IMG/VR virus record: IMGVR_UViG_2778261175_000003
Direction: 5' to 3' (one strand)
DNA length: 37,236 nt
Source of the DNA: a virus
Lineage: Duplodnaviria > Heunggongvirae > Uroviricota > Caudoviricetes
A program made the position numbers and the translations under genes. Positions 803-27,066 of this stretch are shown one piece after another (position 1 is the first letter of the stretch; each line of letters opens with the position of its first letter). The notes under the pieces were generated by a model. The model did not search any database. It had not been told where the DNA came from and saw only the letters and a program-made list of their open reading frames with translations.

Positions 803-1117
803 GTGGTTGCTGATCATGAATATTTGTATTGGAAGATAATTGCAATGAGCGAAAGAGTGTTTGAGAAAGAACTATATTCTGAATGGGTTATACGCAATAG
901 TCTATATTGGATGACTCCGCTTACTCGATGGAAACTCCATGAAGACGTTTCCCACTGGATAATCTCTTTTGAAAACGATAATCCCAAATTCCTTTATGAA
1001 TTCGATAGGCTGCTTAATGATTACTCTTTGCGAGAAAAGCTACAGCATAAAACAGGGGCGTTGAGAGACTCTATTGTCCATAAAGTGCTTCGCAGTGTTG
1101 ATGAGAGGCTTTCATAA
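803..1117 (+). CDS. hxsD: Small protein at the head of the Hxs cassette, HxsD-like by position
   Basis: ORF track (GTG start at 803; alternative ATG at 845). Stop overlaps the start of the next gene (TAATGG). Assignment by operon context only. Confidence 0.45.
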   Translation: MVADHEYLYWKIIAMSERVFEKELYSEWVIRNSLYWMTPLTRWKLHEDVSHWIISFENDNPKFLYEFDRLLNDYSLREKLQHKTGALRDSIVHKVLRSVDERLS

Positions 1118-2505
1118 TGGAATTGATGCCATTTAATTTTGACAGATTGCCTAATGGACAGGTGTTTATAAGCAACCTTGCAGGTTTTCATCATTTCATT
1201 GGTGAGCAAGACCTTATTGATCTTTCTGATGAGCGAATTAGTTCGGAGCAATCAAACGTGCTAGAAAGTAAGCTTTTCATAACCAGTGAAAGCTCATCTG
1301 CTATAACTCCCTATGCTTTAAGTTCTGCTTTTGCAAAACGATTGATGAATGAACTGGCTGTCAGGCCAATTTTCATGATTGTACCCACATTACGTTGTGA
1401 CCATACATGCAAGTATTGCCAGGTTAGTAGAGCTTCTGTTAATGCCTCAGGTTACGACCTAAATCCTGAGCTCATCCCCGATATTATTTCGGCTATTAAA
1501 AAACTATCAACGCCACCTTACAAAATAGAGATACAGGGTGGGGAGCCTCTCTTGCGGTTTGATTTAATTCAGAACATCTATGATCAATGTGCTGAAACGC
1601 TGGGAAGAACCAATTTTGAGATGGTGGTGGCATCAAGTCTGTCTGTCTTGAATGAGGATATGATTGAATGGTCGAGAGACCGGAACATAACGTTCTCTGT
1701 GTCGCTTGATGGTGAGGAAGTTGTTCACAACAGTAATCGAATTCTTGGTCGTGGGCTTGCGTACAGTAGAACAGTGTCAGGGGTAGAGGCTATCAAACAC
1801 TCTTTAGGTGCTGGCCGCGTTGCAACGGTTACTACAGTTACTAAAGAGCTTATCAGACGTCCTGAATCGATTGTTCAGGCTCACTTGTCTCTTGGGCTCA
1901 AGGACATGTTTATCCGACCTGTTAGTCCCTATGGGTTTGCACAAAAAGCTTCTTTCACCTTTTCTATGGACGAATACTTCAGCTTCTATGCCTCGTTGAT
2001 AGATGAAATCCTTAAGATTAATAATGAAGGGATAAGGGTTGTGGAACATTCGGCCTCCATTCATCTGAAAAGGATCTTCAATCCCGGTTTTAGTGGCTAT
2101 GCGGATTTAAAGTCTCCAAGTGGAGTCGTGCTTAACAGTATTCTTTTCAATTATGACGGTCGAGTATATGGTAGCGATGAGAGCCGTATGTTGCAGAAGG
2201 TGAATCCTGAAACGGAGTTCAGTGCGGGTGAAGTTAAGACGCTATCATTTTCTGATAGTCCTTACTATAACGCAGTATTGACTTCATCGTTCAATTTTGC
2301 TCTGCCAGGTTGTGATACATGTGCATATCAACCATTTTGTGGTTCAGATCCATGCCAGAACATAAGTGTACAGGGTGAGCCTGTCGGCGATAGGAGTCGT
2401 TCAACGTTTTGTCAATATCACAAGGGGATGTTCAGGTATCTGATGAACTGCATCTCAGAGGGTGGTTCGAAGGCTGAGATGCTAAAAGGATGGGCATATG
2501 TCTGA
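1117..2505 (+). CDS. hxsB: Radical SAM/SPASM-type maturase, HxsB-like (462 aa)
   Basis: CxxxCxxC motif (CDHTCKYC) about 95 aa from the N-terminus, C-terminal Cys cluster (CDTCAYQPFCGSDPCQ) typical of SPASM/twitch domains; GGEPLL motif; translationally coupled to neighbours. B versus C naming is by size and order, from memory of the TIGRFAMs Hxs families. Confidence 0.75.
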   Translation: MELMPFNFDRLPNGQVFISNLAGFHHFIGEQDLIDLSDERISSEQSNVLESKLFITSESSSAITPYALSSAFAKRLMNELAVRPIFMIVPTLRCDHTCKYCQVSRASVNASGYDLNPELIPDIISAIKKLSTPPYKIEIQGGEPLLRFDLIQNIYDQCAETLGRTNFEMVVASSLSVLNEDMIEWSRDRNITFSVSLDGEEVVHNSNRILGRGLAYSRTVSGVEAIKHSLGAGRVATVTTVTKELIRRPESIVQAHLSLGLKDMFIRPVSPYGFAQKASFTFSMDEYFSFYASLIDEILKINNEGIRVVEHSASIHLKRIFNPGFSGYADLKSPSGVVLNSILFNYDGRVYGSDESRMLQKVNPETEFSAGEVKTLSFSDSPYYNAVLTSSFNFALPGCDTCAYQPFCGSDPCQNISVQGEPVGDRSRSTFCQYHKGMFRYLMNCISEGGSKAEMLKGWAYV

Positions 2506-3610
2506 GGTTATCAGGAACGATATCTTTCATTTTGCTTCTACAGAGAACGTGCCCACGGGGTTCTATCGGTTATGCAAACAAAAACCAGTGAACCCTTTAT
2601 TCTTTTTGCCCAATTTGCTAGTAGTTGCTGAGGGCAATAATGATGCCATTCCACCATGCTTTGATTTCTCTGTTATTAGCACTGAATTATTTGAGTCAAT
2701 TGAAGATGGAGATATTGGGATAATCAACAATGGCAATATGATACGCGTTATTCTGTCACGCAAAGCCAACCATAATACTGTCTTAGTTACGGAACGCTGC
2801 AATAACTTGTGTCTGTTTTGTTCGCAGCCACCAAAGAAAATAAATGATGACTGGCTACTTACCCAATCAGCTCTTGCTATAGCTTCATTTGGCTTGAACG
2901 GAGTTGTTGGGGTCAGCGGTGGTGAACCTTTGCTATATGGGGATGACTTCCTTCACTTCATTGATTTTATCATCGAGAATTCACCAGATACTGCTTTACA
3001 TGTTTTAACAAACGGACGCAAATTTGCTGATACCAACTTTACACAGGAAATGGCAAAGCGAAGCAAAAAGATCAAAATCACCTTTGGTATCCCGCTCTAC
3101 TCATCAAGACCACTTGTGCATGATCATCTGGTAGGGAGTGATGGCGCATTTAATGAAACGGTTAAAGGGTTAATCAATGCAGGAAACTTGGGGATTAATA
3201 TCGAACTTAGAGTTATTCCTACACTGGCTAACTATACCGAATTGGATGATATCGTAGAATTCGCTGGCCGTGTGTTCTCCAACATCAATCAGATTTCCCT
3301 TATGGGGTTGGAGCCTATCGGTTGGGCACGAAAAAACTGGTCCACCATCTTCATTGATCACAGTAGTTATAGTGAGAAAATAATCTCTGCCATAGACGCT
3401 GCATACAGGTCAGGCATACCTCTGACAATTTTTAATTATCCTTTGTGTTATCTTCCTGAAAGGGCTAGGGAGCTTGCTGTTCAGTCGATCTCTGATTGGA
3501 AAAATTACTATCCAAAAGAATGTGATGAATGTACTCAGAAGCCTTCCTGTGCTGGCTATTTCAGTTCCTCAAAAGGCCGTTTTCATCAATCACCGAGACC
3601 AATTTTATGA
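2498..3610 (+). CDS. hxsC: Second radical SAM/SPASM-type maturase, HxsC-like (370 aa)
   Basis: CxxxCxxC (CNNLCLFC), GGEPLL motif, C-terminal Cys cluster (CDECTQKPSC). Start ATGTCTGA overlaps the hxsB stop; its stop overlaps the hxsA start (ATGA). Confidence 0.75.
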   Translation: MSEVIRNDIFHFASTENVPTGFYRLCKQKPVNPLFFLPNLLVVAEGNNDAIPPCFDFSVISTELFESIEDGDIGIINNGNMIRVILSRKANHNTVLVTERCNNLCLFCSQPPKKINDDWLLTQSALAIASFGLNGVVGVSGGEPLLYGDDFLHFIDFIIENSPDTALHVLTNGRKFADTNFTQEMAKRSKKIKITFGIPLYSSRPLVHDHLVGSDGAFNETVKGLINAGNLGINIELRVIPTLANYTELDDIVEFAGRVFSNINQISLMGLEPIGWARKNWSTIFIDHSSYSEKIISAIDAAYRSGIPLTIFNYPLCYLPERARELAVQSISDWKNYYPKECDECTQKPSCAGYFSSSKGRFHQSPRPIL

Positions 3611-4242
3611 AAAAGTTTAATTTTGCTGCTCTACTTCCGGGATTTTTGGCTCTCAACAATTCTGTATGGGCAAGCGATTCATCTACAGGAGCGAGTGATT
3701 TACCTGGTATGACTCTTAATGAGCATGATTTAGTGATAGCTCCACTTAACACGGAAGTCCCATTTTATATCGCAGGGCATCGAAGCCATAGTTCTCATAG
3801 GAGCCATAGCTCTCATAGATCCTCATCAGGTGGTGGATACTATGGTGGAAGTACCCCCTATTATCCAAAAACATACAGCTCACCAAGTTCATCTGGTTCT
3901 TCAAGTTCAGGTGCAAGTTCCTCATCGTCCTCTTCCTCGGTGCGTGCACTTCGTTCTAACGATAATAATAGAACCACTAACACGAGTTCTGTTGGAACTT
4001 CAGAGGTTAACCGTACGAGTAATGGGCTTGCTTCTGATGCAGAGAAACGTAAGCGATTGATTATGCGAGTTCAGTTCGCATTGCTGGACAGGGGATTTTA
4101 TAACGGAAATATTGACGGCATAATGGGGCCATCCACAAGGCTGTCTGTGAAAAATTACCGCATTGCGAATGGATTACCGATTCCTGCAACTGAAACACTC
4201 GACACACAATTGTTAAATTCTTTGAATATATTAGCTCGCTAA
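3607..4242 (+). CDS. hxsA: His-Xaa-Ser repeat protein HxsA-like: signal peptide, (HxS)x5, Ser-rich linker, C-terminal peptidoglycan-binding-like domain
   Basis: Start taken at MKKFNFAALLPGFLALNNSVWA (ATG 3607) rather than the track start 3529. Contains HRSHSSHRSHSSHRS, a poly-Ser tract and a C-terminal segment (RVQFALLDRGFYNGNIDGIMGPSTRLSVKNYRIANGLP) resembling PG_binding_1 domains. Confidence 0.75.
   Translation: MKKFNFAALLPGFLALNNSVWASDSSTGASDLPGMTLNEHDLVIAPLNTEVPFYIAGHRSHSSHRSHSSHRSSSGGGYYGGSTPYYPKTYSSPSSSGSSSSGASSSSSSSSVRALRSNDNNRTTNTSSVGTSEVNRTSNGLASDAEKRKRLIMRVQFALLDRGFYNGNIDGIMGPSTRLSVKNYRIANGLPIPATETLDTQLLNSLNILAR
3778..3822 (+). repeat. Coding tandem repeat encoding five His-Xaa-Ser units
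   Basis: DNA reads cat-cga-agc-cat-agt-tct-cat-agg-agc-cat-agc-tct-cat-aga-tcc; position derived from codon arithmetic in the hxsA frame. Confidence 0.8.
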
Positions 4243-4406: not shown

Positions 4407-5516
4407 TCATTCTGCTATCCATTCCGGGATTTTTGCCTCAAGCTCAAGCTGTGTGGTAAAGCCGCTGTTATCAATGGTGTGCTCGGCTTTTGCAATAATC
4501 CAGTCCTGATTATCAATCTCGCTTTTAAATCCTGTTACCGTGCCATGCATTTCGGGGTAGAGTTCTGCACGCCCACGTGCCAGCGTGATGGAAAATGATG
4601 CGGCTCCGCGTTGTAGCTGCTGCCACTTTGCCGCCGCTGCGCGTCTTGCTGCCTGCTCGTTTTTAAACGTTTTGCGCATGACGTATACATTGCCGTCTGC
4701 GCCCTCCATGTAATCCCCCTCGCGGCTGCTGCTTTTCTCCTTTTTTGTTTTTTGGGCAGAACCACGTTTCGTCACGCTGACTTTTTTCTTTTTGCCATAG
4801 TCCAGGTCCAGCCAGTAAGCGCGTACCCCCGTGTACGCCTGCCGGTCTGCAATGCGGAAGTGATGGCTGTCACCGCTGCTGCGGGTGATGGCGAATGAGG
4901 GCAGCGGCTTTCCGCTGGCGCTCACCCCCTGTCCGGGCACGATGAAAAGCAGTGCGCCGTTCTTGACGGTGGCTATGGCTCCCAGCATGTCTGCCATACG
5001 CGTGAGAAACGAGATGTCACTTTCCTCCGTCTGGTCGGCGTGGTCGATTTCCACCTCTGCCAGCGAGGCGCTGATTTGCGCCTTCAGCCCGTAGCGGTAC
5101 GCGATGGCAGAAACAACCTGCCCCACCGTCACGTCATGCCAGGACACTTCACGCTTCACGTTGAACTCCTGCCGGAAGTCTGCGCTGCTGGCCGTGATGG
5201 TGAGCCTGTCCGGTGGTCCCTCATGTGTCACCTCGTCAACGATGAAGGTTCCTTTGTCCATCAGTGCCTCACCTTTCCAGCCCAGCGCCAGACCCAGCGT
5301 CTGTCCGCGCTTCGGGAGCTGCACGCTGCCGTCGCAGTCGTCAATCGTGAGGGTTAACTGGTCTGCCTCAAATCCCCGGTTGTCGGTCATCGCCAGCGAG
5401 ATGACCCGTCGGGTCAGCGCCGCGTTTTCCGTGCCCTTAACCGTGATGGAAAAATCAGGGATCTTCACGCACTCTGACAGACCGTTCAGGTATCCGCTTA
5501 CGTCCGCAGGGTTCAT
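4407..5516 (-). CDS. D: Tail protein D (late control gene D family)
   Basis: Protein resembles P2 gpD. Start placed at MNPADVSG (ATG at 5514-5516, GGAGA RBS upstream) rather than the track GTG at 5699. Confidence 0.85.
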   Translation of the reverse strand: MNPADVSGYLNGLSECVKIPDFSITVKGTENAALTRRVISLAMTDNRGFEADQLTLTIDDCDGSVQLPKRGQTLGLALGWKGEALMDKGTFIVDEVTHEGPPDRLTITASSADFRQEFNVKREVSWHDVTVGQVVSAIAYRYGLKAQISASLAEVEIDHADQTEESDISFLTRMADMLGAIATVKNGALLFIVPGQGVSASGKPLPSFAITRSSGDSHHFRIADRQAYTGVRAYWLDLDYGKKKKVSVTKRGSAQKTKKEKSSSREGDYMEGADGNVYVMRKTFKNEQAARRAAAAKWQQLQRGAASFSITLARGRAELYPEMHGTVTGFKSEIDNQDWIIAKAEHTIDNSGFTTQLELEAKIPEWIAE

Positions 5517-5588
5517 CGCAATTTCTCCGTCTGTGTCTTCGTACGGCGAAATACTCCCACGCGCACGGAGGCGCTGTAATCCTGCGTA

Positions 5589-5614
5589 TGTTGTCGGAGA
5601 GCGGCGAGAACAGG
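5589..5614 (+). promoter_or_regulatory. Candidate late-promoter activator element TGTTGTCGGAGAGCGGCGAGAACAGG upstream of FI
   Basis: Near-identical 26-nt element recurs upstream of P (24183-24208); each lies about 60-80 bp upstream of a late-gene start and carries TGT...ACA ends reminiscent of the Ogr-dependent P2 late promoter motif. Spacing differs from the canonical TGT-N12-ACA. Confidence 0.4.
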
Positions 5615-5678
5615 CAGCGCGTGAATGCGGGGCTGTTTTTCGGGAGGATGTCGCCACACAAAACACCAGGAGGTGCTC

Positions 5679-6860
5679 ATGAGTGAAACACGCTTTCACG
5701 GTGCACGCGTCAAAGAAAACACCGACCTCGTGACCGCGATTAATGACATTGATTCCAGTGTCATCGGTATCGTGGCCACGGCGGACGATGCAGACAGCGA
5801 CGCGTTCCCGTTAAACAAGCCCGTATTGATCACCCGCGTGGCGAATGTGCTGGGTAAGGCAGGCACAACAGGCACGCTGTACAAAACGCTCAAGGCGATT
5901 TCCGACCAGACCAGCCCGAAGGTTATCGTGGTGCGTGTGGCAGAAGCCGGAGAGGAAGGTGAGACACAGGATCAGCTTGTCATTGGTGGCTCGCAGGCTG
6001 ACGGCAGCTACACGGGCATGTATGCCCTGCTGGTTGCTGAACAGGACGAGAGCATTGGTTACCGCCCGCGCATTCTGGCGGCTCCCGGCCTGGATACCGA
6101 AGCAGTCACATCCGCCCTGTGCGTCATTGCGGACAAGCTCCGCGCCTTTGTGTACGCCGGATGTAACGGGTGCGACACGATGGCGGAGGCAATCACTTAC
6201 CGTGCGAAGTTCTCCGCGCGTGAGCTGATGCTGCTGTGGCCTGACTTCATTGCCTACAACCCGGTGAGCGGAAATAACGAAACATTTCCGGCAGCGGCGT
6301 ATGCGTGCGGGTTGCGTGCGCGGATTGACAGTGAACAGGGCTGGCACAAGTCACTGTCCAACGTGGCGCTGAAAAATGTTCTCGGTATGTCGCAGCAGGT
6401 GTTCTGGTCGTTGCAGGCCGAAGACAGTGATGCGAACAACCTGAACAACAAGGAAATCACCACGATTATTCGCCGTAACGGCTTCCGCTTCTGGGGGAAC
6501 CGTACTGCCGAAACCAGCGACTACATCTTTGAGGTGTACACGCGCACAGCGCAGATTCTGGCAGATACCATCGCTGAGGCGCAGTTCGAAACCATTGACG
6601 AACCGCTGACCCCGGCGAACGTGAAGGACGTGATTAGCGCCATCCGCGCAAAACTCAACGCCCTGGTGACGGCCGGGAAACTCATCGGTGCGGAGTGCTG
6701 GTATGACGTGCTGGACAACGGCACGACGGATTTGCGTCAGGGGCGCGTGCGCATCCGTTATAAGTACACGCCAGTGCCGCCGATGGAAGATCTGACGCTG
6801 TATCAGACCTTCACGGATGAGTATTTCGACTCCGCTTTTGCAACGCTGGGAGGTGCGTAA
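5679..6860 (+). CDS. FI: Contractile tail sheath protein
   Basis: Strong similarity to P2 gpFI (e.g. FPLNKPVLIT, ELMLLWPDF, RRNGFRFWGNRT, YKYTPVPPMEDLTL). Start at ATG 5679 with AGGAGG RBS. Confidence 0.9.
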   Translation: MSETRFHGARVKENTDLVTAINDIDSSVIGIVATADDADSDAFPLNKPVLITRVANVLGKAGTTGTLYKTLKAISDQTSPKVIVVRVAEAGEEGETQDQLVIGGSQADGSYTGMYALLVAEQDESIGYRPRILAAPGLDTEAVTSALCVIADKLRAFVYAGCNGCDTMAEAITYRAKFSARELMLLWPDFIAYNPVSGNNETFPAAAYACGLRARIDSEQGWHKSLSNVALKNVLGMSQQVFWSLQAEDSDANNLNNKEITTIIRRNGFRFWGNRTAETSDYIFEVYTRTAQILADTIAEAQFETIDEPLTPANVKDVISAIRAKLNALVTAGKLIGAECWYDVLDNGTTDLRQGRVRIRYKYTPVPPMEDLTLYQTFTDEYFDSAFATLGGA

Positions 6861-8003: not shown

Positions 8004-11000
8004 TATTCGTGTCAGCTTTGGCGCAATTGACCGGCTGACACGCCCGACCGAAAACGCCCGCCGTCAGGTGGGCGCTCTCACTGAATCCCTTCAGAAGACG
8101 CAGAACAACATACAGGCGCTCGACAGACAGTCGAAGGTGTTCGATCGTGCCGCCGGAAATCTCAGTAAATACCGCGAACAGATTGCCCGCGCGGAGCAGA
8201 GGCTCGCCGGGCTGCGAAAGGCAGAGCAGGACGGTAACACTCTCTCCGAAAAGCAGCGGGAGATGATGACGGCGCTGTCTGCACGTCTTGAGCGCCTGAA
8301 CGAGCTGCGCACGCGCGAGCGCGAAAAACTCCAGGCGGCGGCAGGCGAAATGCGCAAACACGGCATTCTGCTTTCCGGCAGCAGCCGCACCATCGAAAGT
8401 GCCGTTCGCCGTACACAGCAGTACAACGAGCAGCTCGAGCGCGAACGGCAGGCACTGGCTCGCGTGACGCAGGCACAGAGCCGCTATGAGGCCGCGAAGG
8501 CACAGGCGGAAAAACTGCGCAACACAGGGGCTGTGGCGATGGCGGCGGGTACAGGCGGCCTGTATGCGGCGCAGCGCATGATGGTTCCGGCGATGGAGTC
8601 CGAACAGCACGGCGCGGTCATTGCTGCCGGTTCAGGGGAAGCCCCACAGGATGGCGCACGTTACACCCACATCATCCGTAACATACAGGCTGACAGTCTC
8701 GCTGATTTTGCCGGTGCTGCGGAGGCTGTGAGTGCGGTACGCAGTACGCTCGGCGCGCTGGGCGACACCGGCGACCGGGAACTGGAGCGCATCAGCCGTC
8801 GTGCGCTGGATATGCGGACCGTCTTTGGTGTTGATGTGCCGCAGAGCATTCAGGCCGCAGCCATCATGATGAAGAACGGGCTGGCCGCCAGCAGTGACGA
8901 GGCTACTAACCTGATGACGGCAGGGATGCAGCGCATGTCCGCTGAAATGCGCGATGAACTGCCGGAAATTCTGCATGAGTATTCCACCCACTTCCGCAAC
9001 ATGGGCTTCACCGGCAGCGAGACAATGAGTCTGCTGGTTGAGATGGCAAAGCAGGGCAAGTTTGCGCTGGACAAAACCGGCGATGCCGTGAAGGAGTTCA
9101 GTATCCGTGGTTCGGATATGTCGAAATCCAGTGTTTCAGCGTATGAGACACTCGGCCTGAATGCCGAACGGGTGTCTGCTGCCATTGCTCAGGGGGGCAG
9201 TACCGCACGCCAGGCGATGCAGGTGACCGCCCGTGCACTGCTGGCCATCCGTGACCCGGCAGAGCGGGCGAACACGGCCATTGCGTTATTCGGCACCCCC
9301 GTTGAAGACCTTTCCGTTGACCAGATCCCGCAGTTCCTGAGGGCGCTGGCTGATGTTCGTGACAATCTGGGCGATGTCACCGGTGTGGCAGACCGCATGG
9401 GGCAGACGCTGCGCGGTAATCTCTCCGGCGATATTCAGGCGCTGAGTGGTGCGTTCTCAGGGCTACGCACGGACATCTTCGGTACTGTGACCGAGGATTT
9501 GCGCGGGCTGGTTCAGACGGTGAGCGCGTGGGTGACCCGGATGCGCGAATGGGTCGGAGAGCATCAGGCGCTGGTCAGAGTCCTGGTGCTGACCGGCGGG
9601 AGTGTTCTGGCGCTGTCTTCCACGTTCGGTGCGCTGTCACTGACGCTCGGGCTGATTGCGGGGCCGCTGGCAAAACTGCAACTGGGGCTGGGGCTGCTGA
9701 CGGGGGGCGGCGGCATTGGTGGTGCTGTCCGGCTTGTGTCTGCGATGGCACTGCGCCTGACGGGGCTGCCTGCGCTGTGGGGGCTGGTCACGGGGGCGGT
9801 GTCGGTACTGGGTGGCGCACTGGGGGCGCTGTTCAGTCCGGTCGGGCTGATTGTTGCCGCCCTGGTGGGCGGCGCGGTTCTGGTGTGGAAATACTGGGAT
9901 CAGATCAGCGCGTTTTTTTCCGGCTTTTTTGCCGGAGTGTGGGAGGCGCTGCAACCGCTGCGGGAAGCCTTTGCATCGCTGGCTCCGGTGTTCGGGTTGA
10001 TTGGTGACGGCATCAAAGCTGTGTGGGAGTGGTTCACCCGCCTGCTTGAACCTGCGAACGCCTCAAAAGAGACGCTCGACAAATGCACCAGTGCCGGGGA
10101 GTCGTTCGGCAAAACGCTGGGGTGGGTCATTCAGAACATTGTGCTGGGGCCGCTGATGCTGCTCCTTGATGGTCTCGGTACCGTGCTGAAGTGGCTGGGT
10201 GTCATCCCGGACGGCATCAAAAAGGCACAGAAGGAGACGCAAAAACTCCAGGTGAGCGCCGCAAAACAGGCCACACAAAAAGCGCCGGTTGCGTGGGAGT
10301 GGGATCCTGCACAGAAAAAAATGGTGCAGAAAACATGGTCGTGGTCATCAGATGCAGAGGAAAACAACGGTGACAATAAACCCGCAATACCTGCCCCTGC
10401 GGTTCCCGGAGAGGTGAAGGGAACGTCAGACAATCCGGTCAGCAAACCCGGTAGTAAATCCCCGCTGGATGAGGCATGGTTCCGGCAGGGGATACAGAAA
10501 ACCGCCAGCAACACCGGCGGGCTGCTTGAGGAAACCAAAAAACGTACTGGTCCCGGCGATATTGTTTTCAAAAACCTGCCCGGACCCGAAATCATTCACG
10601 GCGAGTGGAAAGCACCGCAGGTTATCCGGACAGTGCAGGCGGTATCGGCGGGCGGAGGACTGGCGGATGCGCTGACAACGCTCTGGCAGAAACTCACCGG
10701 AAGACAGACTGCTTCACCCGTTCCGGTCGTGAATATTCCTGCGCCAGTGGAGAGAGTGGCACGTCAGGTATCCACGCTGCCGCAGCACAACGAGGCAAAT
10801 ACAGAACTGGTTGCCGGTATTCAGCGTGTGCATGAGGCGGTGAACAGTCCGGGTGGAGAGGGCACTTTGCCTTCCCCCGTGGTTAACGTTCTGATGCCAG
10901 CAGTGAATGTTCCTGCGCCAGTGGTGAGCGTGGCCCGTCAGGTGTCCACGCTGTCACAGCCGCAGCACAACGAGGCAAATACAGAACTGGTTGCCGGTAT

Positions 11001-11454
11001 TCAGCGCGTGCATGAGGCGGTGAACAGTCCGGGGGGAGAGACGGTATCGCCTCCACCTGTGGTGAACGCTCTGATGCCAGCAGTGATTGTTCCTGCGCCA
11101 GTGGTGAGCGTGGCGCGTCAGGTATCCACGCTGCCGCAGCACAACGAGGCAAATACAGAGCTGGCTGCCGATATTCAGCGCGTGCGTGAGGCTGTAAACG
11201 GCCCGGGCGGAGATGTGGCTTTATCTGTTCCTGTTGCGGAGGTTATCCGTCCACCGCTGCGACCGGAGTCCGTCAAAAAAGAAACCGCGCCACAAACGCA
11301 GGCTGCGGCATTTTCCGGTGAAATACACGTACATCTGCACAACGTCAACACGCAGAATCCGCGTGAACTGGCAAAACTGGTTGGCGAGGCTGTCCGCGAA
11401 GAGATGCGCAGACAGGCGCGTACAGGCATGAACAGCTTCTGTGACAGGGACTAA
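7954..11454 (+). CDS. T: Tail tape measure protein
   Basis: Very long ORF after E/E' with coiled-coil N-terminus, Gly/Ala-rich hydrophobic middle and internal repeats. Track start is GTG 7954; an alternative GTG near 7990 is possible. Confidence 0.85.
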   Translation: MSGRRNVAESATVKSLDIRVSFGAIDRLTRPTENARRQVGALTESLQKTQNNIQALDRQSKVFDRAAGNLSKYREQIARAEQRLAGLRKAEQDGNTLSEKQREMMTALSARLERLNELRTREREKLQAAAGEMRKHGILLSGSSRTIESAVRRTQQYNEQLERERQALARVTQAQSRYEAAKAQAEKLRNTGAVAMAAGTGGLYAAQRMMVPAMESEQHGAVIAAGSGEAPQDGARYTHIIRNIQADSLADFAGAAEAVSAVRSTLGALGDTGDRELERISRRALDMRTVFGVDVPQSIQAAAIMMKNGLAASSDEATNLMTAGMQRMSAEMRDELPEILHEYSTHFRNMGFTGSETMSLLVEMAKQGKFALDKTGDAVKEFSIRGSDMSKSSVSAYETLGLNAERVSAAIAQGGSTARQAMQVTARALLAIRDPAERANTAIALFGTPVEDLSVDQIPQFLRALADVRDNLGDVTGVADRMGQTLRGNLSGDIQALSGAFSGLRTDIFGTVTEDLRGLVQTVSAWVTRMREWVGEHQALVRVLVLTGGSVLALSSTFGALSLTLGLIAGPLAKLQLGLGLLTGGGGIGGAVRLVSAMALRLTGLPALWGLVTGAVSVLGGALGALFSPVGLIVAALVGGAVLVWKYWDQISAFFSGFFAGVWEALQPLREAFASLAPVFGLIGDGIKAVWEWFTRLLEPANASKETLDKCTSAGESFGKTLGWVIQNIVLGPLMLLLDGLGTVLKWLGVIPDGIKKAQKETQKLQVSAAKQATQKAPVAWEWDPAQKKMVQKTWSWSSDAEENNGDNKPAIPAPAVPGEVKGTSDNPVSKPGSKSPLDEAWFRQGIQKTASNTGGLLEETKKRTGPGDIVFKNLPGPEIIHGEWKAPQVIRTVQAVSAGGGLADALTTLWQKLTGRQTASPVPVVNIPAPVERVARQVSTLPQHNEANTELVAGIQRVHEAVNSPGGEGTLPSPVVNVLMPAVNVPAPVVSVARQVSTLSQPQHNEANTELVAGIQRVHEAVNSPGGETVSPPPVVNALMPAVIVPAPVVSVARQVSTLPQHNEANTELAADIQRVREAVNGPGGDVALSVPVAEVIRPPLRPESVKKETAPQTQAAAFSGEIHVHLHNVNTQNPRELAKLVGEAVREEMRRQARTGMNSFCDRD
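10729..11220 (+). repeat. Three tandem coding repeats (about 174-180 bp, about 58-60 aa each) inside the tape measure gene
   Basis: Copies begin near 10729, 10903 and 11083; protein unit PVVN.PAPV..VARQVSTLPQHNEANTELVAGIQRVHEAVNSPGGE. Confidence 0.8.
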
Positions 11455-11926: not shown

Positions 11927-11934
11927 ATAAAAAA

Positions 11935-11959
11935 GAGGGAGTGTAAAAAGCACTCCCTT
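11935..11959 (-). terminator. Hairpin (GAGGGAGTG-loop-CACTCCCTT) with A-run on plus strand, i.e. U-run on minus strand
   Basis: Read directly; functions as an intrinsic terminator for leftward transcription and possibly marks the end of the U operon. Confidence 0.4.
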
Positions 11960-12055
11960 ATGGCCTTCATGGAAAAGAAGCAAATGTTGTCAATACATTC
12001 TGACTATATATAAATCGCCTGATGATGGCAATGGTGATATTCGGGAAATAAAAAA

Positions 12056-12072
12056 GCCCTCGCAAAGAGGGC
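12056..12072 (-). terminator. Hairpin GCCCTC-GCAAA-GAGGGC preceded on plus strand by an A-run (minus-strand intrinsic terminator)
   Basis: Read directly from the sequence. Confidence 0.45.
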
Positions 12073-12245
12073 AACATGCATTGTGTGAAGATTTAATTTT
12101 TCTGGTTGCAGGGGGGATTATATTGAACTGTATTCATTTAATGCAATATTTTTAATTGTCATCATCATTGATGAAAATATTTCTTGTGTTTTTGTTGCCC
12201 TGATTACAATTTCACTCATTACTGTGTCTTTGCGGCAAAAAAAAA

Positions 12246-12262
12246 GCCCGCACGGGGCGGGC
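12246..12262 (-). terminator. Hairpin GCCCGC-ACGGG-GCGGGC preceded on plus strand by nine A (strong minus-strand intrinsic terminator)
   Basis: Read directly from the sequence. Confidence 0.55.
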
Positions 12263-12963
12263 AAGGAATGTTTGCATGTGTATAACACTGCGGGATTATA
12301 AATAAATTACGCGTTCTGTAAAATCCCCTTTGATGGAGATTCAGGCCATACCAGCGCATTATAACAATCTTCGTCCTTCACGGAAGTGAAAGTCACCTGC
12401 TGAAGTTCTTTAATGTATTCAATTCACGCAGCCAACCTTCCTTTGTCTTGATCGCTGATGGTGCCGGGCAATAACTCAGATTGCCAGATTCTGATCCTCT
12501 CTTTTGCCTCCGGCAGCAGGGGATTTCGTTGTCATTCTGCTTTAGCCTGCCACTTTTCAGGTGGCAGCACATGACGAACAATATTTTCATCATCAAATAT
12601 CCAGTTACCTGAGTCATCAGCACGTTGGTTAGCGTTAATATCAGAAGTATTAACAACACTAAAACCGACATGATTAAGTGTTGATGCCTCTCTGGTAATG
12701 GTGACAATAATATTATTTCGTTGTAAATCATTTTGATTTTATCTGGTCGAAAGGTCCCTGCATCGTTATGCCGGTTTTTATTTCCTTCAGAGGAAATATG
12801 ATTACTTTGTGCTTCTTTTTTAACACATACAGTCTGGAGTTAATGTTGCCTGTTTTATGTTCTTGAGTGCGTCATATTAATCTCTTACATATTATATCTG
12901 GTACAATTTATAGTTTTCTGAAGCTTGCCTGAAAGAATTGAGTTTCCTGCAGGCTTTCAAGGG

Positions 12964-13062
12964 GGTGATGATGATATGCGGGAGAAACTTCAGCCTGCAT
13001 CTGTGTGGGGAATCACTGAATACGCTTAAAGACAAATCGTCGTCGCTGAACGCATTCCCTTA
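12964..13062 (+). pseudogene. Degraded duplicate of the 3' end of tail gene U
   Basis: About 75 nt align at roughly 85 percent identity (by eye) with the true U 3' end at 11840-11915 (GATGA.GATATG.GGGAGAAACT.CAG.CTGC.TCTG...CTGAA.ACGCTTAAAGACAAA), with a 1-nt deletion breaking the frame. Confidence 0.6.
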
Positions 13063-13108
13063 ACCTGACGCCACCACCTCATACAGATAACGAGGTGGTA
13101 GCGTGATT

Positions 13109-13402
13109 TCACCAGTAACTAACCGACAGCCAGAACAACAGGCATGTTGCCACCGGTACAGCAAAATCCATCAGGCTTCCGGCATCCCACACGCGCGGAT
13201 CAAAACCACCCCACCATGGCATGTTAATTCGTTTCCCTTTCCCGAATTTTTCAATCCAGCGATATTCTGCCTGGGTGTGTTCACGTGCAATGAAGAACGT
13301 ACAGCCAGCTACCGCACCATAAGTCCAGTTTCCGGTGAAAAGCCCGGCCAGAAGCTGAGCAGCCACAGCACAAAGTGCATGAAGCAAGGGGCTTATATCC
13401 AT
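13109..13402 (-). CDS. Hypothetical small membrane protein (97 aa, two hydrophobic segments) downstream of the tail-fibre module
   Basis: ORF track; hydrophobic N- and C-terminal stretches; no family recognised. The antisense 13103-13756 ORF is judged a shadow. Confidence 0.4.
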   Translation of the reverse strand: MDISPLLHALCAVAAQLLAGLFTGNWTYGAVAGCTFFIAREHTQAEYRWIEKFGKGKRINMPWWGGFDPRVWDAGSLMDFAVPVATCLLFWLSVSYW

Positions 13403-13414
13403 TGTTTTCTCCCT

Positions 13415-13693
13415 TCAGCTCCATTCCCGAAGCGGTGTTTCCAGCTCCACCACATAATCAGAGAACACAGAAATATCAAACGCATCATCAAGAATGCGGA
13501 TGTTGACAAAATAACCGTCATTCCGGATACAGACAGCTTCCCCCTCTTCAGTTACCCCTGTTTCTGTGTAGGTGAAACCAATTTCATTGACCAGAAGTTT
13601 GTTCTGGAGGTCTTCGTTTTCCTCCCAGTCAAGAGACGACAGGAATGCTTTAAACTGCTGTTTATCATGAAATTTCAGGGTCAGATCTTTCAT
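13415..13693 (-). CDS. Hypothetical acidic protein (92 aa) translationally coupled to H; possible tail-fibre accessory/assembly factor
   Basis: ATGA overlap with the H stop; occupies the position of P2 gene G but no sequence similarity recognised. Confidence 0.4.
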   Translation of the reverse strand: MKDLTLKFHDKQQFKAFLSSLDWEENEDLQNKLLVNEIGFTYTETGVTEEGEAVCIRNDGYFVNIRILDDAFDISVFSDYVVELETPLREWS

Positions 13694-15456
13694 ACCGCCT
13701 CCTTGATTTGTCTGTCGTTTAATTCTTTATGCCATAGGCGGAAATTACGAATATGACCAAACAAATGACGCGTTCCTGCTGCTGTCTGCCCACCAAAGCG
13801 GCATAAATTTGCTGTAACACCAAATGTTTTCCCTTCAGCGGTTACCGCATAATTACCATTGCATATTGCATTTATCGCCAGGTCGGCTCCTGCCCTCAGC
13901 CCCATAATGAATTTATCTCCATCGGCGAGGATTTTTGCGTTGATCATTCCCACTCCAGCAACTATTGTTCCCGCCGAGGAAAAATTAAGCGACATATAAT
14001 CGTTATCAATGCTGTATCCTCCGGTGTCAAATACCCTTGGCGCAATATTGGGGGGAGTATTCCAGTTTTTGTTCACTTCGCACAATACGGTAAAAGGTCG
14101 TGCTGACAGGTTATTTTTCGCAGGGATTGTTACCACATCACTGGCTCTTGTCGTTGCGCTGGCTCCCGAAACAATAAATGATGATACACAAGCACCATCC
14201 TCAACTTGTGGAGTAGCAAGATAAATATAATCACCGGATGCAATTGTTCCACCCCATTTAGGTGAACACTGGATCTGAGAGCCTATTTTTAACTCACCCT
14301 CAATTGCCTCAATTGTTGCCTCGGCAAAAATCCAGCCAGTAGTCTCATCTTTTCTGGCTCTGGCTGAAATTCTGTCTGAGGCATCTCCGGTCGTATTAAT
14401 TTCAAACGTCTGTGTATCAATGTACGCATCACCAAGAAAAGTTGTTGCACTGCCGTCATATTTATCAAACCGGATGCGGAGCCTTAGCTGTAATTCTGTT
14501 TTAAATCGGCATGAGGTTGTCACGTACTTGTTATCGCCAGAGACATCAACCGCCTCTGTTGCAGCAACTGATGCCATATTTACAGCGGAGGTCTGCCCAA
14601 TCAGAGAATCGTTGCAGACAAACTTCCCATAAGTAAAACCAAAACTATCCGTCCCGGTTTCGGGTACATCCATACTTACTGACTTGCCCCAGTTGGCCGG
14701 GGTTTCCGAATTGAGCATGTAGTTTGTTCTTTGCCCTTCAATCAGCAGACCTTCGCGCTCAAATCGTGGCTCATTAATTTCCGCCGTTTTCAGTTCACCC
14801 GATTTATTGATATAGGTTGCCGTTGATGCGCGCGTGAAACTAACCTGTTTATCACTGGCAACCTGAACCACATCATCACCAATGGTGATTTTTTTATAGC
14901 CCGGAGCGAACCCCGTAAGCATATCCAGTGAATCGTTAAACGGTATCCATACATCAGGCAGCGGCGGTACAGAGTCCTTTTCCTGTGCAACATATTCTTC
15001 AACATAGGCGCGGGTGGCGAGCACGACAGAGGGATCAACTTTCAGCTCGACGGATGAAGCACTGGAAACCACAACAATCATGCGAATTGTCTGCGTGCGC
15101 CCGCTTCCCTCGGCGAGTACGGGCTTGTAGGTTTCGGGGCAGTTCGCCACGGCAATCATCACGCCGTCGCTGTCAAAAAGCCCAATCTCGCGGATCCAGA
15201 ACCCCCCTTTGTCTTCCGGGATAATCATCTCGGCGACAAGCTGGCTGGCATCGGACGCGCTGACGCTCAGTTGATTCAACGGGGCGCTGTATACCGTGTT
15301 CACCAGCTTTTCCATGGACGCCGCCGGTTCCGGCAGGCTGCCGCCGCCATCTCCCAGTTTCATGGTGGTGATGGATATTTTTGAGCCGCTGGCCACCGCC
15401 TTTGCCAGACGGGCAGCACCTTTGTCAGTCAGAACAGAAAAATATTTTACAGTCAT
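13690..15456 (-). CDS. H: Tail fibre protein with P2 H-like N-terminus and a divergent, LamG/ConA-like C-terminal receptor-binding region
   Basis: N-terminal about 150 aa closely match P2 gpH (MT.K...V.T..GAA.LA.A...G.K..ITTM..GDGGG.LP.P...). C-terminus ends GHIRNFRLWHKELNDRQIKEAV, a pattern recalled from LamG-type jellyroll domains. Confidence 0.8.
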   Translation of the reverse strand: MTVKYFSVLTDKGAARLAKAVASGSKISITTMKLGDGGGSLPEPAASMEKLVNTVYSAPLNQLSVSASDASQLVAEMIIPEDKGGFWIREIGLFDSDGVMIAVANCPETYKPVLAEGSGRTQTIRMIVVVSSASSVELKVDPSVVLATRAYVEEYVAQEKDSVPPLPDVWIPFNDSLDMLTGFAPGYKKITIGDDVVQVASDKQVSFTRASTATYINKSGELKTAEINEPRFEREGLLIEGQRTNYMLNSETPANWGKSVSMDVPETGTDSFGFTYGKFVCNDSLIGQTSAVNMASVAATEAVDVSGDNKYVTTSCRFKTELQLRLRIRFDKYDGSATTFLGDAYIDTQTFEINTTGDASDRISARARKDETTGWIFAEATIEAIEGELKIGSQIQCSPKWGGTIASGDYIYLATPQVEDGACVSSFIVSGASATTRASDVVTIPAKNNLSARPFTVLCEVNKNWNTPPNIAPRVFDTGGYSIDNDYMSLNFSSAGTIVAGVGMINAKILADGDKFIMGLRAGADLAINAICNGNYAVTAEGKTFGVTANLCRFGGQTAAGTRHLFGHIRNFRLWHKELNDRQIKEAV

Positions 15457-17470: not shown

Positions 17471-18048
17471 TGCGGGCCTCCTGTGGTGTCGCCGCCGCTC
17501 TTCACGCCACTGTGTTTGTGCGTGTGCAGCGTCACACCGTTGGAGGTGAAATCACCGCCGCTGTGCGAGATATTGCCACTCAGGGTTCCGCCTTCTGTCA
17601 CCTCAAACGTTGCCGCTTTCAGATGGTTTGTGCAGGTGACGGTGGGGGTGTCCAGCGTCACGCCCGTTCCGGCCTGAATGGTGGCTGTTCTGATTCCGCT
17701 GGCGCTCAGTGCACCTGCGTCCGCATCGTAGCGGAACACCGCGCCGTCAGGCGCTGTGACCACGATTTCCGTCAGGCTGCTGCCGGGCGCAGGATGTTCG
17801 CTGCTCCAGAGACTGCCGATGACGGTGGCGGTTGCGGGGTCGCCATTGATACAGGCAATCATGACCTGTTCGCCCACGGCAGGCGGCAGCCATACGCTGA
17901 ACGCGCCCGCGCGTGGTGTGTTCCAGCGCAGCCAGTCGGTTTCCAGCTCTCCGCTGCGCACACGAACGCGCCACGTGGTTTCGTCCACGGCAAAAATCAC
18001 GCCCGTGCGGATGGTGTTTGCAAGCAGTCGCATGATTTCCGCTGTCAT
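17467..18048 (-). CDS. V: Baseplate spike/hub protein V
   Basis: Similarity to P2 gpV; position. Confidence 0.8.
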   Translation of the reverse strand: MTAEIMRLLANTIRTGVIFAVDETTWRVRVRSGELETDWLRWNTPRAGAFSVWLPPAVGEQVMIACINGDPATATVIGSLWSSEHPAPGSSLTEIVVTAPDGAVFRYDADAGALSASGIRTATIQAGTGVTLDTPTVTCTNHLKAATFEVTEGGTLSGNISHSGGDFTSNGVTLHTHKHSGVKSGGDTTGGPQ

Positions 18049-18683
18049 CGTGCCGCACTCCTCAGGGAGCGGATAATCGTGTCGTGTACCAGGCGTTCGT
18101 CGGCTGCCGTGATACCCAGCAGTTCACGCACCGGGTAGGTGGTCATCACGCCCGGAGCCACCTCGTCGCGTAACCCTGCCTGATGCACGCGGGCAATCCG
18201 TGCCGCCAGGCCATCGAAGCCCACAACAGCGCCTTCCGCATCTGAGCGCATTTTTAACCAGCGGTATGTGCGAAGACGCGCGAACATCGGCGTGCTTTTT
18301 TTGCTGGTCTGGCGGGCAGACATGGACGATACCGCGATGTATCGCTCAATATCATCACGGTAAAACGTCCTCAGCGCACCGCCACGGTCAGGGTCGCGCC
18401 CGATAATGGCGCGGCCTTTCCGGTAACGCTTGTGGCCCCACTGGCGTAACGTGCGCACTTCACCGTTCCATACAAATTTCACTTCACGGCGGGTGTGCAT
18501 CACCTGCCGTTTTCGTGCCGGATACGGCGAGCCGTCTGCGTTCTTCTGTGCGCGGATGCGCGCCTGCTGGCTCCGGCGCAGCGCCTGCCCGACAGCCCGC
18601 GCCGTGCGTGCCCGTCCGGCGGCGGAAAGCCCGCTCAGGATGTCGCGAAAAACCGCGTCCGTTTCATGCGTCGTCGTGTTCAT
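18045..18683 (-). CDS. S: Virion morphogenesis / tail completion protein in the gpS position
   Basis: Position between R and V as in P2; basic protein. Similarity to P2 gpS itself not confidently recognised. Confidence 0.55.
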   Translation of the reverse strand: MNTTTHETDAVFRDILSGLSAAGRARTARAVGQALRRSQQARIRAQKNADGSPYPARKRQVMHTRREVKFVWNGEVRTLRQWGHKRYRKGRAIIGRDPDRGGALRTFYRDDIERYIAVSSMSARQTSKKSTPMFARLRTYRWLKMRSDAEGAVVGFDGLAARIARVHQAGLRDEVAPGVMTTYPVRELLGITAADERLVHDTIIRSLRSAAR

Positions 18684-23247: not shown

Positions 23248-24117
23248 TCAGAAATCACAGGCGGTGTAAGCAATACCGCCGCCGGTTACGCCAGGGTGAG
23301 CAGGTGCGTCAGTGCCCGTTGCGGAGAAACGCTGATGCGGGTCGCCGTCCTGTGCCTGTAGCTGTGTACGCAGCGTGGTCAGTTCCCGGGTCAGACGGGT
23401 GATTTGTGCGCGGTCTTCGTCGCGCTGGCGTTCCTGTGCGTTGAAACGGTCAAGCAGGTCAGCGTGCGCAGAGGCCACGCGCTCCACAACGTCACGCATC
23501 TGCGCAAACTGTTCGCTGTCCGTTTTACGGCTGCCGCTGATGAGGTTCATGACACGCGCGAACCACTGAACGCCTTCGTCGTTCTGGCGCTGGTTCAGGG
23601 CAATGACGCCGGCCTCAATGGCATCGGTGAAAAACGGCGGCTCACACTGCTGATTGTTAAACGCCATCGCCTGCGCGCGCTGCTGTGCGGCAAACTGCAG
23701 ACGCTCAGTGCCAAGACTTGCCGGGCTGTCGGTCATCGCCAGTCCCTGAAGATACGGACCGCCCGTGATGAATGACTGCGGGTAAAGCTCGATGCTGGCA
23801 TAAATCTTTTTGCCGTCATCCAGCAGTTTCTTCATGCGTCCGGTGGGTTCAATTTCGGCATACAGCGCCGTGCGTCCCGCCAGCGGCCCGTCAGTGATGT
23901 CTTCTGCGCTCAGTGCCACCACATCCCCCATCGCCGCGAAGGCGCTGTCCGGGTGCGGTGAAAGGATGTGCTCAACGTTCACACGTGCGCCGTAGACGGA
24001 CGGGTCATAACTGGCGGCGGCAGCTTTCAGCATGTCGCCACAGATTTCGCGCCCGTCTGAGGTCGTACCGGAAACGGCCACGCGGAATTTTTTTCGTTCA
24101 GGTTTCTTGTCTGCCAT
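23248..24117 (-). CDS. O: Capsid scaffolding protein O
   Basis: Start at MADKKPERKKFRVAVSGT (M52 of the track ORF); similarity to P2 gpO; divergent from P. Confidence 0.85.
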   Translation of the reverse strand: MADKKPERKKFRVAVSGTTSDGREICGDMLKAAAASYDPSVYGARVNVEHILSPHPDSAFAAMGDVVALSAEDITDGPLAGRTALYAEIEPTGRMKKLLDDGKKIYASIELYPQSFITGGPYLQGLAMTDSPASLGTERLQFAAQQRAQAMAFNNQQCEPPFFTDAIEAGVIALNQRQNDEGVQWFARVMNLISGSRKTDSEQFAQMRDVVERVASAHADLLDRFNAQERQRDEDRAQITRLTRELTTLRTQLQAQDGDPHQRFSATGTDAPAHPGVTGGGIAYTACDF

Positions 24118-24182
24118 ACGGCCTCCTCGAATATCGTTGTGCTCATGATGACGCGCCCTGCGGCCCGCGCTCAACGCGGCGT

Positions 24183-24208
24183 TGTTGTCGGAGAACCGCC
24201 AGAACAGG
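24183..24208 (+). promoter_or_regulatory. Second copy of the candidate late-promoter element (TGTTGTCGGAGAACCGCCAGAACAGG) upstream of P
   Basis: 23 of 26 positions identical to the element at 5589-5614. Confidence 0.4.
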
Positions 24209-24268
24209 AACAGGAAGCGCAGGCAGGACGCGCGCGGGTAGCCTGTATGACAGGAGGTGACAGACGGC

Positions 24269-26011: not shown

Positions 26012-27066
26012 TGAAAAAACAAAAACGAAAACAAACGTATTCCCGCCGGGATGACGGCGGGGATCTGGCAGATGCACTGCGTCATCAGCCATCGTTAAGC
26101 GCTTTCTCGTTTGACGGGCCTTATGATGCGCACGCGCTCGACCTGCTGGATAACGCATACTGCCTGAGTAACGGCAGGTACTACGAAACACCCGTTGACT
26201 GGTACGGGCTGGCGCGGGCATCCCGGCAGACCTCGTGGCATCAGTCGGCGCTGTACTTCAAACGAAATGCCATTCTGGGCTGCTTCATTCCGCACCGGCT
26301 GCTGTCCCGGCAGGCGTTCTCCGCCTTTGCGCTGGACTGGTTTGTCTTCGGGAATGCGTTTCTTGAACTGCGCACCAACAGGCTGGGCGGAAAACTGGAA
26401 CTGCGGCACGCACTGGCGAAGTACACCCGCCGTGGTGTGGAGCCGGATGTGTACTGGTTTGTGCAGACGGGCGAGCAGGATCACGAGTTCCGTCAGGGGC
26501 GCGTCTGTCATGTGCTGAACCCTGACATCAACCAGGAGATGTACGGAATGCCGGAATATCTCGGCGGCCTGTTGTCTGCCAGTCTGTCGCATTCGGCAGA
26601 TCGTTTTCGCAAACTCTACTATGACAACGGTTCACACGCAGGCTGCATTATTTACGTGGGAGCAGCACAGGTTGACCGCGAAAGCATGCAGGCGCTCGAA
26701 AGAGCGTTGCAGGGCGCAAGAGGCGGTGGGGCATTCAAAAACCTGCTGCTCCAGGCACCGAACGGCGGGAAGGACGGTGTGCAAATCCTGCCGTTCCAGC
26801 AGATCACCGCCCGGGATGAGTTTATGAACGTCAAGGCTGCCTCCCGCGATGATGTGCTGGCTGCTCACCGCGTACCACCACAACTGATGGGCGCAATGCC
26901 CAGCGGACAGGGGTCATTTGGTGATGTGGAGAAGGCGGCAAGAGTGTTTGCGATCAACGAACTGATGCCGGTGATGGAGGCGATGAAGCACGTTAATGAC
27001 TGGCTGGGCGAGGAGGTGATCCGCTTTAACCCTTACGCACTGCTGGATACCCCGCCCACATCCTGA
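26011..27066 (+). CDS. Q: Portal (capsid vertex) protein Q
   Basis: Similarity to P2 gpQ; coupled to P (ATGA overlap). Confidence 0.85.
   Translation: MKKQKRKQTYSRRDDGGDLADALRHQPSLSAFSFDGPYDAHALDLLDNAYCLSNGRYYETPVDWYGLARASRQTSWHQSALYFKRNAILGCFIPHRLLSRQAFSAFALDWFVFGNAFLELRTNRLGGKLELRHALAKYTRRGVEPDVYWFVQTGEQDHEFRQGRVCHVLNPDINQEMYGMPEYLGGLLSASLSHSADRFRKLYYDNGSHAGCIIYVGAAQVDRESMQALERALQGARGGGAFKNLLLQAPNGGKDGVQILPFQQITARDEFMNVKAASRDDVLAAHRVPPQLMGAMPSGQGSFGDVEKAARVFAINELMPVMEAMKHVNDWLGEEVIRFNPYALLDTPPTS

Follow-up and report, generated by a model that had tools for sequence, protein, structure and literature searches.

Ogr of phage P2 acts on RNA polymerase through the α subunit, transcription from late promoters of the P2 type is rpoA109-sensitive, and P4 Delta, 186 B and the activators of PSP3 and phiR73 are related proteins. 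The P2 GenBank record carries one 'activator binding site; pO, pP promoters' at 3057–3087, which reads TGTTGT(3060–65)-GTCAGTGATAAG-CCA. The annotated starts are at 3016 (− strand, P operon) and 3127 (+ strand, O operon), and the centre of the dyad TGT(3063–65)-N12-CCA lies at 3071.5, 55.5 nt from each of them. The sites of PF (TTGT-GCTGTCGATTAG-CCA) and PV (TGTTGT-CTGGTAGTTCTA-CAA) align in the same register, with their centres 56.5–58.5 nt from the annotated starts. Compared with the late-promoter consensus TGT-N12-ACA, as it is quoted in PMC3931495, the annotated P2 sites match 4–5 of the six bases in this register (right triplets CCA, CCA and CAA).

A second close system is Smp131, a P2-like phage of Stenotrophomonas. 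One TGT-N12-ACA-like dyad has already been assigned there, by sequence inspection, to both PP′ and PO′, and the phage has an Ogr-like protein of the form CX2CX22CX4C (PMC3931495). The Smp131 promoters are putative too, and the phage differs from the DNA described here in host clade and gene rearrangements.

The 37,236-nt stretch of DNA analysed here (the window) contains two closely similar 26-nt elements. We estimate a probability of about 85% that these are binding sites of the prophage's own Ogr/Delta-family activator and would control its late promoters. The boxes are orthologues of the well-characterised P2 late-promoter sites in an uncharacterised prophage lineage, which is no surprise to a P2 specialist. 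The repeat, the ogr gene, the order of the genes, the pattern of conservation and the match in position to P2's annotated PP/PO site are seen directly; we infer the binding by Ogr, the transcription starts and the two-way use of each box.

Prophage layout, the repeated element and the activator

Pfam matches, the order of the genes and similarity at the nucleotide level identify the window as a P2-like (Peduoviridae) prophage. Among deposited phages it is nearest to the P88-like coliphages (Xuanwuvirus) and phage Chuche, with approximately 75% nucleotide identity, and the tail region is 94–97% identical in about ten complete E. coli genomes. The main features are listed in Table 1. The long − strand block consists of O, N, M, L, the lysis genes, R, S, V, W, J, I and H, and extends down to approximately 13415. 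P and Q are followed by the early region, which encodes a CI-like repressor, the integrase and the replication protein A. Relative to P2, the FI-U block is inverted in place and D and ogr keep the P2 orientation, and D and FI are therefore divergent neighbours. Both elements sit in divergent intergenic regions, one between D and FI and the other between O and P, each about midway between the two late units. The divergent D/FI layout is common to Xuanwuvirus, Reginaelenavirus, Novemvirus, Reipivirus, Senquatrovirus and Serratia phage KSP20. The P88-like coliphages, 3LV2017 (Reginaelenavirus), phiT5282H (Novemvirus), ST16-OXA48phi5.4 (Reipivirus), SEN5 (Senquatrovirus) and KSP20 resemble the window in gene order, in the two boxes and in symmetric −10 hexamers.

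Two further genes in the early region, at 29648–30607 (−) and 28712–29044 (−), encode a ParM/StbA-like actin and a small protein with a C-terminus like the ClpX-type zinc-binding domain. P88 has the same two early genes, annotated as ParM and ClpX-like protein.

Table 1. Positions of the genes, boxes and putative −10 hexamers in the window, and box sequences in related phages and contigs (distances are from the dyad centre).
Feature	Position	Strand	Details
ogr-like gene	332–592	−	PF04606
Low-GC cargo island	803–4242	+	
D (tail/baseplate hub)	4407–5516	−	PF05954; divergent from FI
Putative D −10, GAGTAT	5551–5556	−	44.5–49.5 nt; predicted start ~5544
Box between D and FI (copy 1)	5589–5614	+	TGTTGTCGGAGAGCGGCGAGAACAGG, also in L005; dyad 5589–5612, TGT 5592–5594, AGA 5607–5609, centre 5600.5
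Putative FI −10, GAGGAT	5644–5649	+	43.5–48.5 nt; predicted start ~5656
FI (tail sheath)	5679–6860	+	PF04984, PF17482, PF22671; first of FI-FII-E-T-U operon, to 11926
Second low-GC island	~11930–13700		Between FI-U and O-H operons
O (capsid scaffold/protease)	23248–24117	−	PF05929, E = 7e-83; heads long − strand late operon
Putative O-operon −10, CATCAT	24145–24150	−	44.5–49.5 nt; predicted start ~24138
Box between O and P (copy 2)	24183–24208	+	TGTTGTCGGAGAACCGCCAGAACAGG; dyad 24183–24206, TGT 24186–24188, AGA 24201–24203, centre 24194.5
Putative P-Q −10, TAGCCT	24239–24244	+	44.5–49.5 nt; predicted start ~24251
P (terminase large subunit)	24269–26011	+	PF03237, PF17289, PF06056
Q (portal)	26011–27066	+	After P
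FI-side box, L002–4			TGTTGTAGGAGAGCGGCGAGAAGGGG
FI-side box, P88-like			TGTTGTCGCCGTGGCGGGAGAACGGC; variants AGAATGG, AGAATAG, AGAACAG
FI-side box, KSP20			TGTTGTCGCCGGCGGATGACAACC
FI-side box, 3LV2017			TGTTGTGGCAGGCCGGTCACAACC
FI-side box, phiT5282H			TGTTGTCGCCGTCCGGCCAGACCC
FI-side box, ST16-OXA48phi5.4			TGTTGTCAGCGAACGGGCAGACCG
FI-side box, SEN5			ATTGTTGCAGGTTGCTGACAACC
P-side box, L082–84			TGTTGTCGGAGTGTTGCGACAAAGTG; P protein 98–99% identical
P-side box, P88-like			TGTTGTAAGAAAACGGCCAGAACAGG
P-side box, L086 and L093			...CAGAACTGA
P-side box, KSP20			...GCGACAGCC
P-side box, 3LV2017			...GCCACAACC
P-side box, phiT5282H			...CCAGACCA
P-side box, ST16			...CCAGACCT

The element has the consensus TGTTGTCGGAGA(G/A)C(G/C)GC(G/C)AGAACAGG, also written TGTTGTCGGAGARCSGCSAGAACAGG, and occurs twice in the window. 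A previous sequence-only reading had placed the two copies on the + strand upstream of FI and P and had described them as ending in TGT and ACA. Coordinates and strand proved correct, and TGT at positions 1–3 and ACA at positions 22–24 are present in both copies. The copies are identical at 23 of 26 positions (9 of 12 in the spacer), and their similarity does not clearly extend past 26 nt. The start codons of FI and P were placed after a frame check, and the end of the element lies 64 nt from the FI ATG and 60 nt from the P ATG. Allowing up to three mismatches on both strands of the whole window, we found no further match, and 100 dinucleotide-preserving shuffles yielded none. With a lineage-specific weight matrix built from 14 orthologous box sites, the two boxes scored 38.7 and 37.1 bits. 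The third-ranked match in the window scored 9.6 bits, which is inside the shuffled range (maximum 7.7 ± 2.4, highest 11.9). Lineage-specific bases in the spacer and the right half dominate the matrix, and it is unusable across genera; it fails to find P2's own annotated sites.

Such a repeat could in principle be non-transcriptional, either a recombination or inversion site or a coincidence, given the inversion of the FI-U block relative to P2 and the DNA invertase nearby in P88. The copies, however, are repeated in direct orientation at a distance of 18.6 kb, and they do not bound the inverted block (5.6–11.9 kb). The chance expectation is 0, and orthologous boxes sit at these promoters whether or not the phage has an invertase. 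We attach next to no weight to this explanation.

The activator predicted to act on the boxes is encoded near the left end of the window. The 86-residue product of the gene at 332–592 is an Ogr/Delta zinc-finger protein (E = 5.4e-14; 52.3 bits against a cutoff of 26.3), of the same family as P2 Ogr. Its cysteines at positions 4, 7, 32 and 37 give the pattern CX2C-X24-CX4C, in which the linker between the cysteine pairs has 24 residues, unlike the 22 of P2 Ogr. The two proteins are 38% identical over 73 residues, and with this divergence and the longer linker the DNA contacts of the window protein could differ in detail from those of P2 Ogr. Its identity to Ogr of P88-like (Xuanwuvirus) phages and contigs is 95–100%, and the window shares with P88 both this Ogr type and the right half-site AGAAC. 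It is unlike P88 in its structural genes (only ~75% nucleotide identity), in an FI-box spacer of the 'P-site type' and in a His-Xaa-Ser cargo between D and ogr. We presume that the 332–592 product binds both boxes. A sigma-70-like promoter, TTGGAA-17-TAGAAT, at 651–623 (−) is found shortly before the ogr start codon (592), and it is a candidate for ogr's own promoter, such as P2 ogr has.

Dyad register in the window and its relatives

Both boxes form the partial dyad TGTTGT-N12-AGAACA. At each of them the inner triplets, TGT (positions 4–6) and AGA (positions 19–21) separated by 12 nt, agree with the TGT-N12-ACA consensus at five of six bases. The left half TGTTGT and the register TGT-N12-NNA are as in P2. 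The right half is not: the window has AGAAC, P2 has CCA(A/T)C or CAA, and the family consensus is ACA. The AGA triplet counts as a caveat, and it is not unusual, since the P2 sites have CCA and CAA there. One centre, at position 12.5, is common to the outer TGT/ACA and the inner TGT/AGA. As aligned, the two pairs make up one extended dyad of 6+6 bases, TGTTGT/ACAACA, in which a single C has become G. The alignment puts the boxes in the canonical P2 register, and AGA is no worse a deviation than those of P2's own sites. The orientation of this asymmetric box relative to the genes is flipped, with TGTTGT proximal to O in the window and proximal to P in P2.

The boxes were compared in 160 IMG/VR loci, retrieved through the FI and P proteins, together with deposited phages of five further genera. 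Two alignments, A1 for the O/P and A2 for the D/FI intergenic region, cover nine lineages from at least five Peduoviridae genera. In both regions TTGT (positions 3–6) and the A's at positions 19 and 21 are invariant across the nine lineages (TTGT-N12-A.A), whereas the spacer and positions 22–24 vary freely. The nearest relatives at the P site, L082–84, have TGTTGT-N12-ACA there, and KSP20, 3LV2017 and SEN5 have ACA at positions 19–21. Positions 22–24 read ACG, ATG or ATA at the FI sites of P88-like phages, AGG in L002–4, AAG in L082–84, ACT in L086 and L093, CCA, CCT or CCC in phiT5282H and ST16, and ACC in 3LV2017, KSP20 and SEN5.

These columns bear on the claim, made in the sequence-only reading, that the half-sites are spaced more widely than in P2 and hint at an altered geometry of activator binding. 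The functional dyad would then be the outer one, TGT(1–3)-N18-ACA(22–24). It is present in both window copies, and the P sites of P88-like phages also read AGAACAGG. In the relatives, however, it is the outer ACA that varies, and the invariant columns are TTGT and A19/A21. The P2 sites align in the inner register. Outer and inner triplets have one centre, so no change of geometry is needed to accommodate the outer ones. We consider a longer spacing very improbable, and this part of the earlier description was not borne out.

Another possibility concerns the high identity of the two copies. It could reflect recent copying between the promoter regions, or descent from one module, with only TTGT and A.A being functional. 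The FI and P spacers differ in the P88-like phages (CGCCGTGGCGGG vs AAGAAAACGGCC). The window's FI spacer, CGGAGAGCGGCG, is like the P-type spacer of several genera (CGGAGAACGGCG/C) and closer to it than to other FI-box spacers, and the window is mosaic around both boxes. It is because of this 'P-site type' FI spacer that the copies look like a 26-nt repeat in the window and not in P88. The P-type spacer may reflect sequence exchange in a mosaic genome. On the other side, the similarity has no clear extension past 26 nt, and copying is compatible with the activator-box model rather than opposed to it. As a full account of the identity we regard copying as unlikely, though it deserves more weight than the other alternatives considered here.

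Predicted core promoters and the late regulon

A sigma-70 consensus scan of 5517–5678 and 24118–24268 returned no promoter, only a TTGAG-like motif on the O side; promoters that depend on an activator would be expected to look like this. Symmetrically placed −10-like hexamers flank both boxes instead: each of the four sides has one, 44–50 nt from the dyad centre, in essentially all nine lineages. On the FI side, GAnnAT is found at the same distance in nine of nine lineages, and its A, A and T are invariant in alignment A2. The P-side hexamer, TA(A/G)(T/C)CT, is likewise kept in all nine. P2 has an identical TAGCCT at 3028–3023, 7 nt upstream of the annotated PP start at 3016. CATCAT on the O side recurs at the same distance in eight of nine lineages (the ninth has GATGAT), with invariant columns in alignment A1. 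The D-side hexamer, (G/A)AnnAT at the same distance in eight of nine, is the least conserved of the four.

Starts were predicted with the usual distance of 7 nt from hexamer to start. The four predicted starts would lie 55.5–56.5 nt from the box centres, close to the 55.5–58.5 nt that separate the annotated P2 starts from their own site centres. All of them are upstream of Shine–Dalgarno sequences, and at least 68.5 nt separate every centre from the start codon. The likeness to P2 includes a predicted centre-to-start distance of ~55–57 nt, the lack of a −35 consensus, TAGCCT on the P side and one box between the divergent P and O operons. A GC-rich block (CGCGCGCGGG; CACGCGCG on the D side) at 24229–24238 and 5557–5566 directly abuts the −10-like hexamers and, across genera, is among the most conserved intergenic sequence in A1 and A2. 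Immediately left of the P/O box there is a small inverted repeat, CCGCG-CTCAA-CGCGG (24165–24179), of which CTCAACGCG is kept in most relatives. A possible weak −35 for PO, TTGAGC, can be read from it on the − strand, 18 nt upstream of CATCAT on the O side. The repeat was flagged as terminator-like in the scan, yet it is probably no terminator.

The boxes might nevertheless act in one direction only, towards FI and P. D would then be transcribed from another promoter or constitutively, and its hexamer would be fortuitous. The D-side hexamer is the most variable of the four (GAGTAT, AATGAT, GACCAT, AACCAT, GATCCT), and the D leader would be very short in P88-like phages, in which the hexamer would leave only 13 nt. 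Against this, the sharing of the O/P box is annotated in P2 with mapped starts, and (G/A)AnnAT keeps its fixed 44–50 nt distance on the D side in eight of nine lineages despite divergent flanks. There is no sigma-70 consensus promoter between D and FI. D is an essential late tail gene which in P2 is expressed from PF, and with FI-U inverted no other late promoter lies upstream of D. We judge one-directional use decidedly unlikely. Use of the FI box towards D as well is the likelier arrangement, although we hold it less firmly than the activator-box reading itself. The inversion of FI-U puts the FI box where it could also serve D, in the opposite direction, and in this the window differs from P2.

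In the activator-box model, the Ogr-like protein, after replication-dependent expression, would bind the dyads centred at 5600.5 and 24194.5. Positioned at about −55/−56, it would recruit RNA polymerase in both directions onto weak −10 elements without a usable −35, by analogy with P2 Ogr through the α subunit. Transcripts of FI-U, D, P-Q and O-H would be started in this way, so that four late transcription units would depend on two boxes.

We searched the window for a third box, at PV or anywhere else, with TGTTGT-N12-A[GC]A, with looser patterns and with the weight matrix, and only the two known copies were recovered. The sequence-only reading had regarded the elements as candidate activator-dependent late promoters and had called for a search for further copies, especially upstream of the O and V operons. 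Their absence formally counts against the promoter reading but does not overturn it. O would use the P box, as annotated in P2, and D the FI box. V overlaps S by 4 nt (18045–18048), which leaves no space for a PV region like that of P2, and the window, unlike P2, has no PV box. The O operon transcript probably runs through V to H. The promoter reading itself is very probable, given the encoded Ogr/Delta protein, the lack of a sigma-70 consensus and the conservation across Peduoviridae genera. Exact TGT-N12-ACA matches at 6118, 10952, 12808 and 20812 were rejected as promoters: approximately nine are expected by chance in 37 kb, and three of the four are inside coding sequence and one in a low-GC island. 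P88 also has two strong boxes by matrix scan. A weaker third match there, GTCGTGGTCGCTGGGCCGGGAGAACGCC (18.9 bits), at 18639–18666 (+) in the DUF2570 lysis-region gene upstream of R, has no counterpart in the window.

More broadly, we suggest with slightly less than even confidence that this branch of the Peduoviridae runs its entire late regulon from only two bidirectional Ogr boxes. The divergent D/FI region would have arisen from the FI-U inversion, a separate PV would be absent, and the right half-site would co-vary with the activator variant and define specificity classes. With FI-U inverted, two activator boxes would apparently be enough for all of the late regulon, which goes beyond P2. 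For annotation, four predicted late promoters are placed in widespread, little-studied P2-like prophages of Enterobacteriaceae, and a misread site geometry is corrected. In the literature searched we found no description of the bidirectional D/FI arrangement or of co-variation between half-site and activator, and no paper on these boxes in the P88-like group. Promoters, ogr and the inversion all go unmentioned in the P88 genome paper.

Half-site variants, mosaicism and low-GC islands

The right half-site differs among lineages and tends to be the same at both boxes of one phage. At the two boxes it is AGAAC and AGAAC in the window and P88, AGACC and AGACC in phiT5282H and Reipivirus, ACAAC and ACAAC in 3LV2017, and CCAAC and CCATC in P2. 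SEN5 and KSP20 have ACAAC. The L002-type phages are an exception to this concordance within a phage, with AGAAG and ACAAA. The right half-site appears to co-vary with the Ogr variant, concordantly at both boxes in most phages, in what is a small sample compared without phylogenetic correction. This variation hints at lineage-specific recognition by Ogr. If that is true, the right halves would define separate specificity classes within the Ogr family, and half-site variation would offer a natural panel for how small zinc-finger activators read DNA.

The genome is mosaic, as judged from its protein similarities, with a P88-type Ogr beside an FI of the L002–L005 type. The FI proteins of contigs L002–L005 are 98–99% identical to that of the window, and their Ogr proteins are only 58–65% identical. 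In the comparison with L002–L005 and L006–L081, several IMG/VR contigs have ogr at identical coordinates, 335–592, and therefore a common left boundary with the window.

At the P box, contigs L082–L084 (P protein 98–99% identical, flanks almost identical) differ from the window in a patch of ~45 nt at approximately 24197–24230. It takes in the right half of the box and the sequence immediately downstream (AACCGCCAGAACAGGAACAGG... vs TGTTGCGACAAAGTGCGGTG...). The window's version resembles P88's GCCAGAACAGG, which fits its P88-type Ogr, and has a tandem GAACAG-GAACAG at 24202–24213. Matching of half-site to Ogr, if real, could explain such patchwise replacement of the P-box right half in a mosaic prophage.

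A complete His-Xaa-Ser system makes up the low-GC (~42%) cargo at 803–4242 (+), between D and ogr. It encodes HxsD (TIGR03976, 6e-26), the His-Xaa-Ser repeat protein HxsA (TIGR03979, 3e-47) and the radical-SAM maturases HxsB (TIGR03978, 1e-167) and HxsC (TIGR03977, 1e-119). PADLOC gave only weak viperin-like radical-SAM matches on it. The operon is convergent with D. The cargo is absent from the close relative L005, where ogr directly adjoins D.

The second island (39–47% GC) lies between the converging FI-U and O-H operons and its ORFs are all small and questionable as genes. A near-consensus sigma-70 promoter is found there on the − strand (TTTACA-16-TATAAT, 12322–12295), along with strong − strand terminators at 12262–12246, 12072–12056 and 11958–11936. 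An exact TGT-N12-ACA at 12808–12825, of a kind expected by chance, is ~85 nt upstream of the ORF 12393–12731. P88 has a DNA invertase and alternative tail-fibre genes at the same position. Within the tape-measure gene T, a 180-nt unit is repeated in 2.8 tandem copies with 86% matches (10729–11213), and these encode three protein repeats of ~60 residues of the form ...VARQVSTLPQHNEANTELVAGIQRVHEAVNSPGGE....
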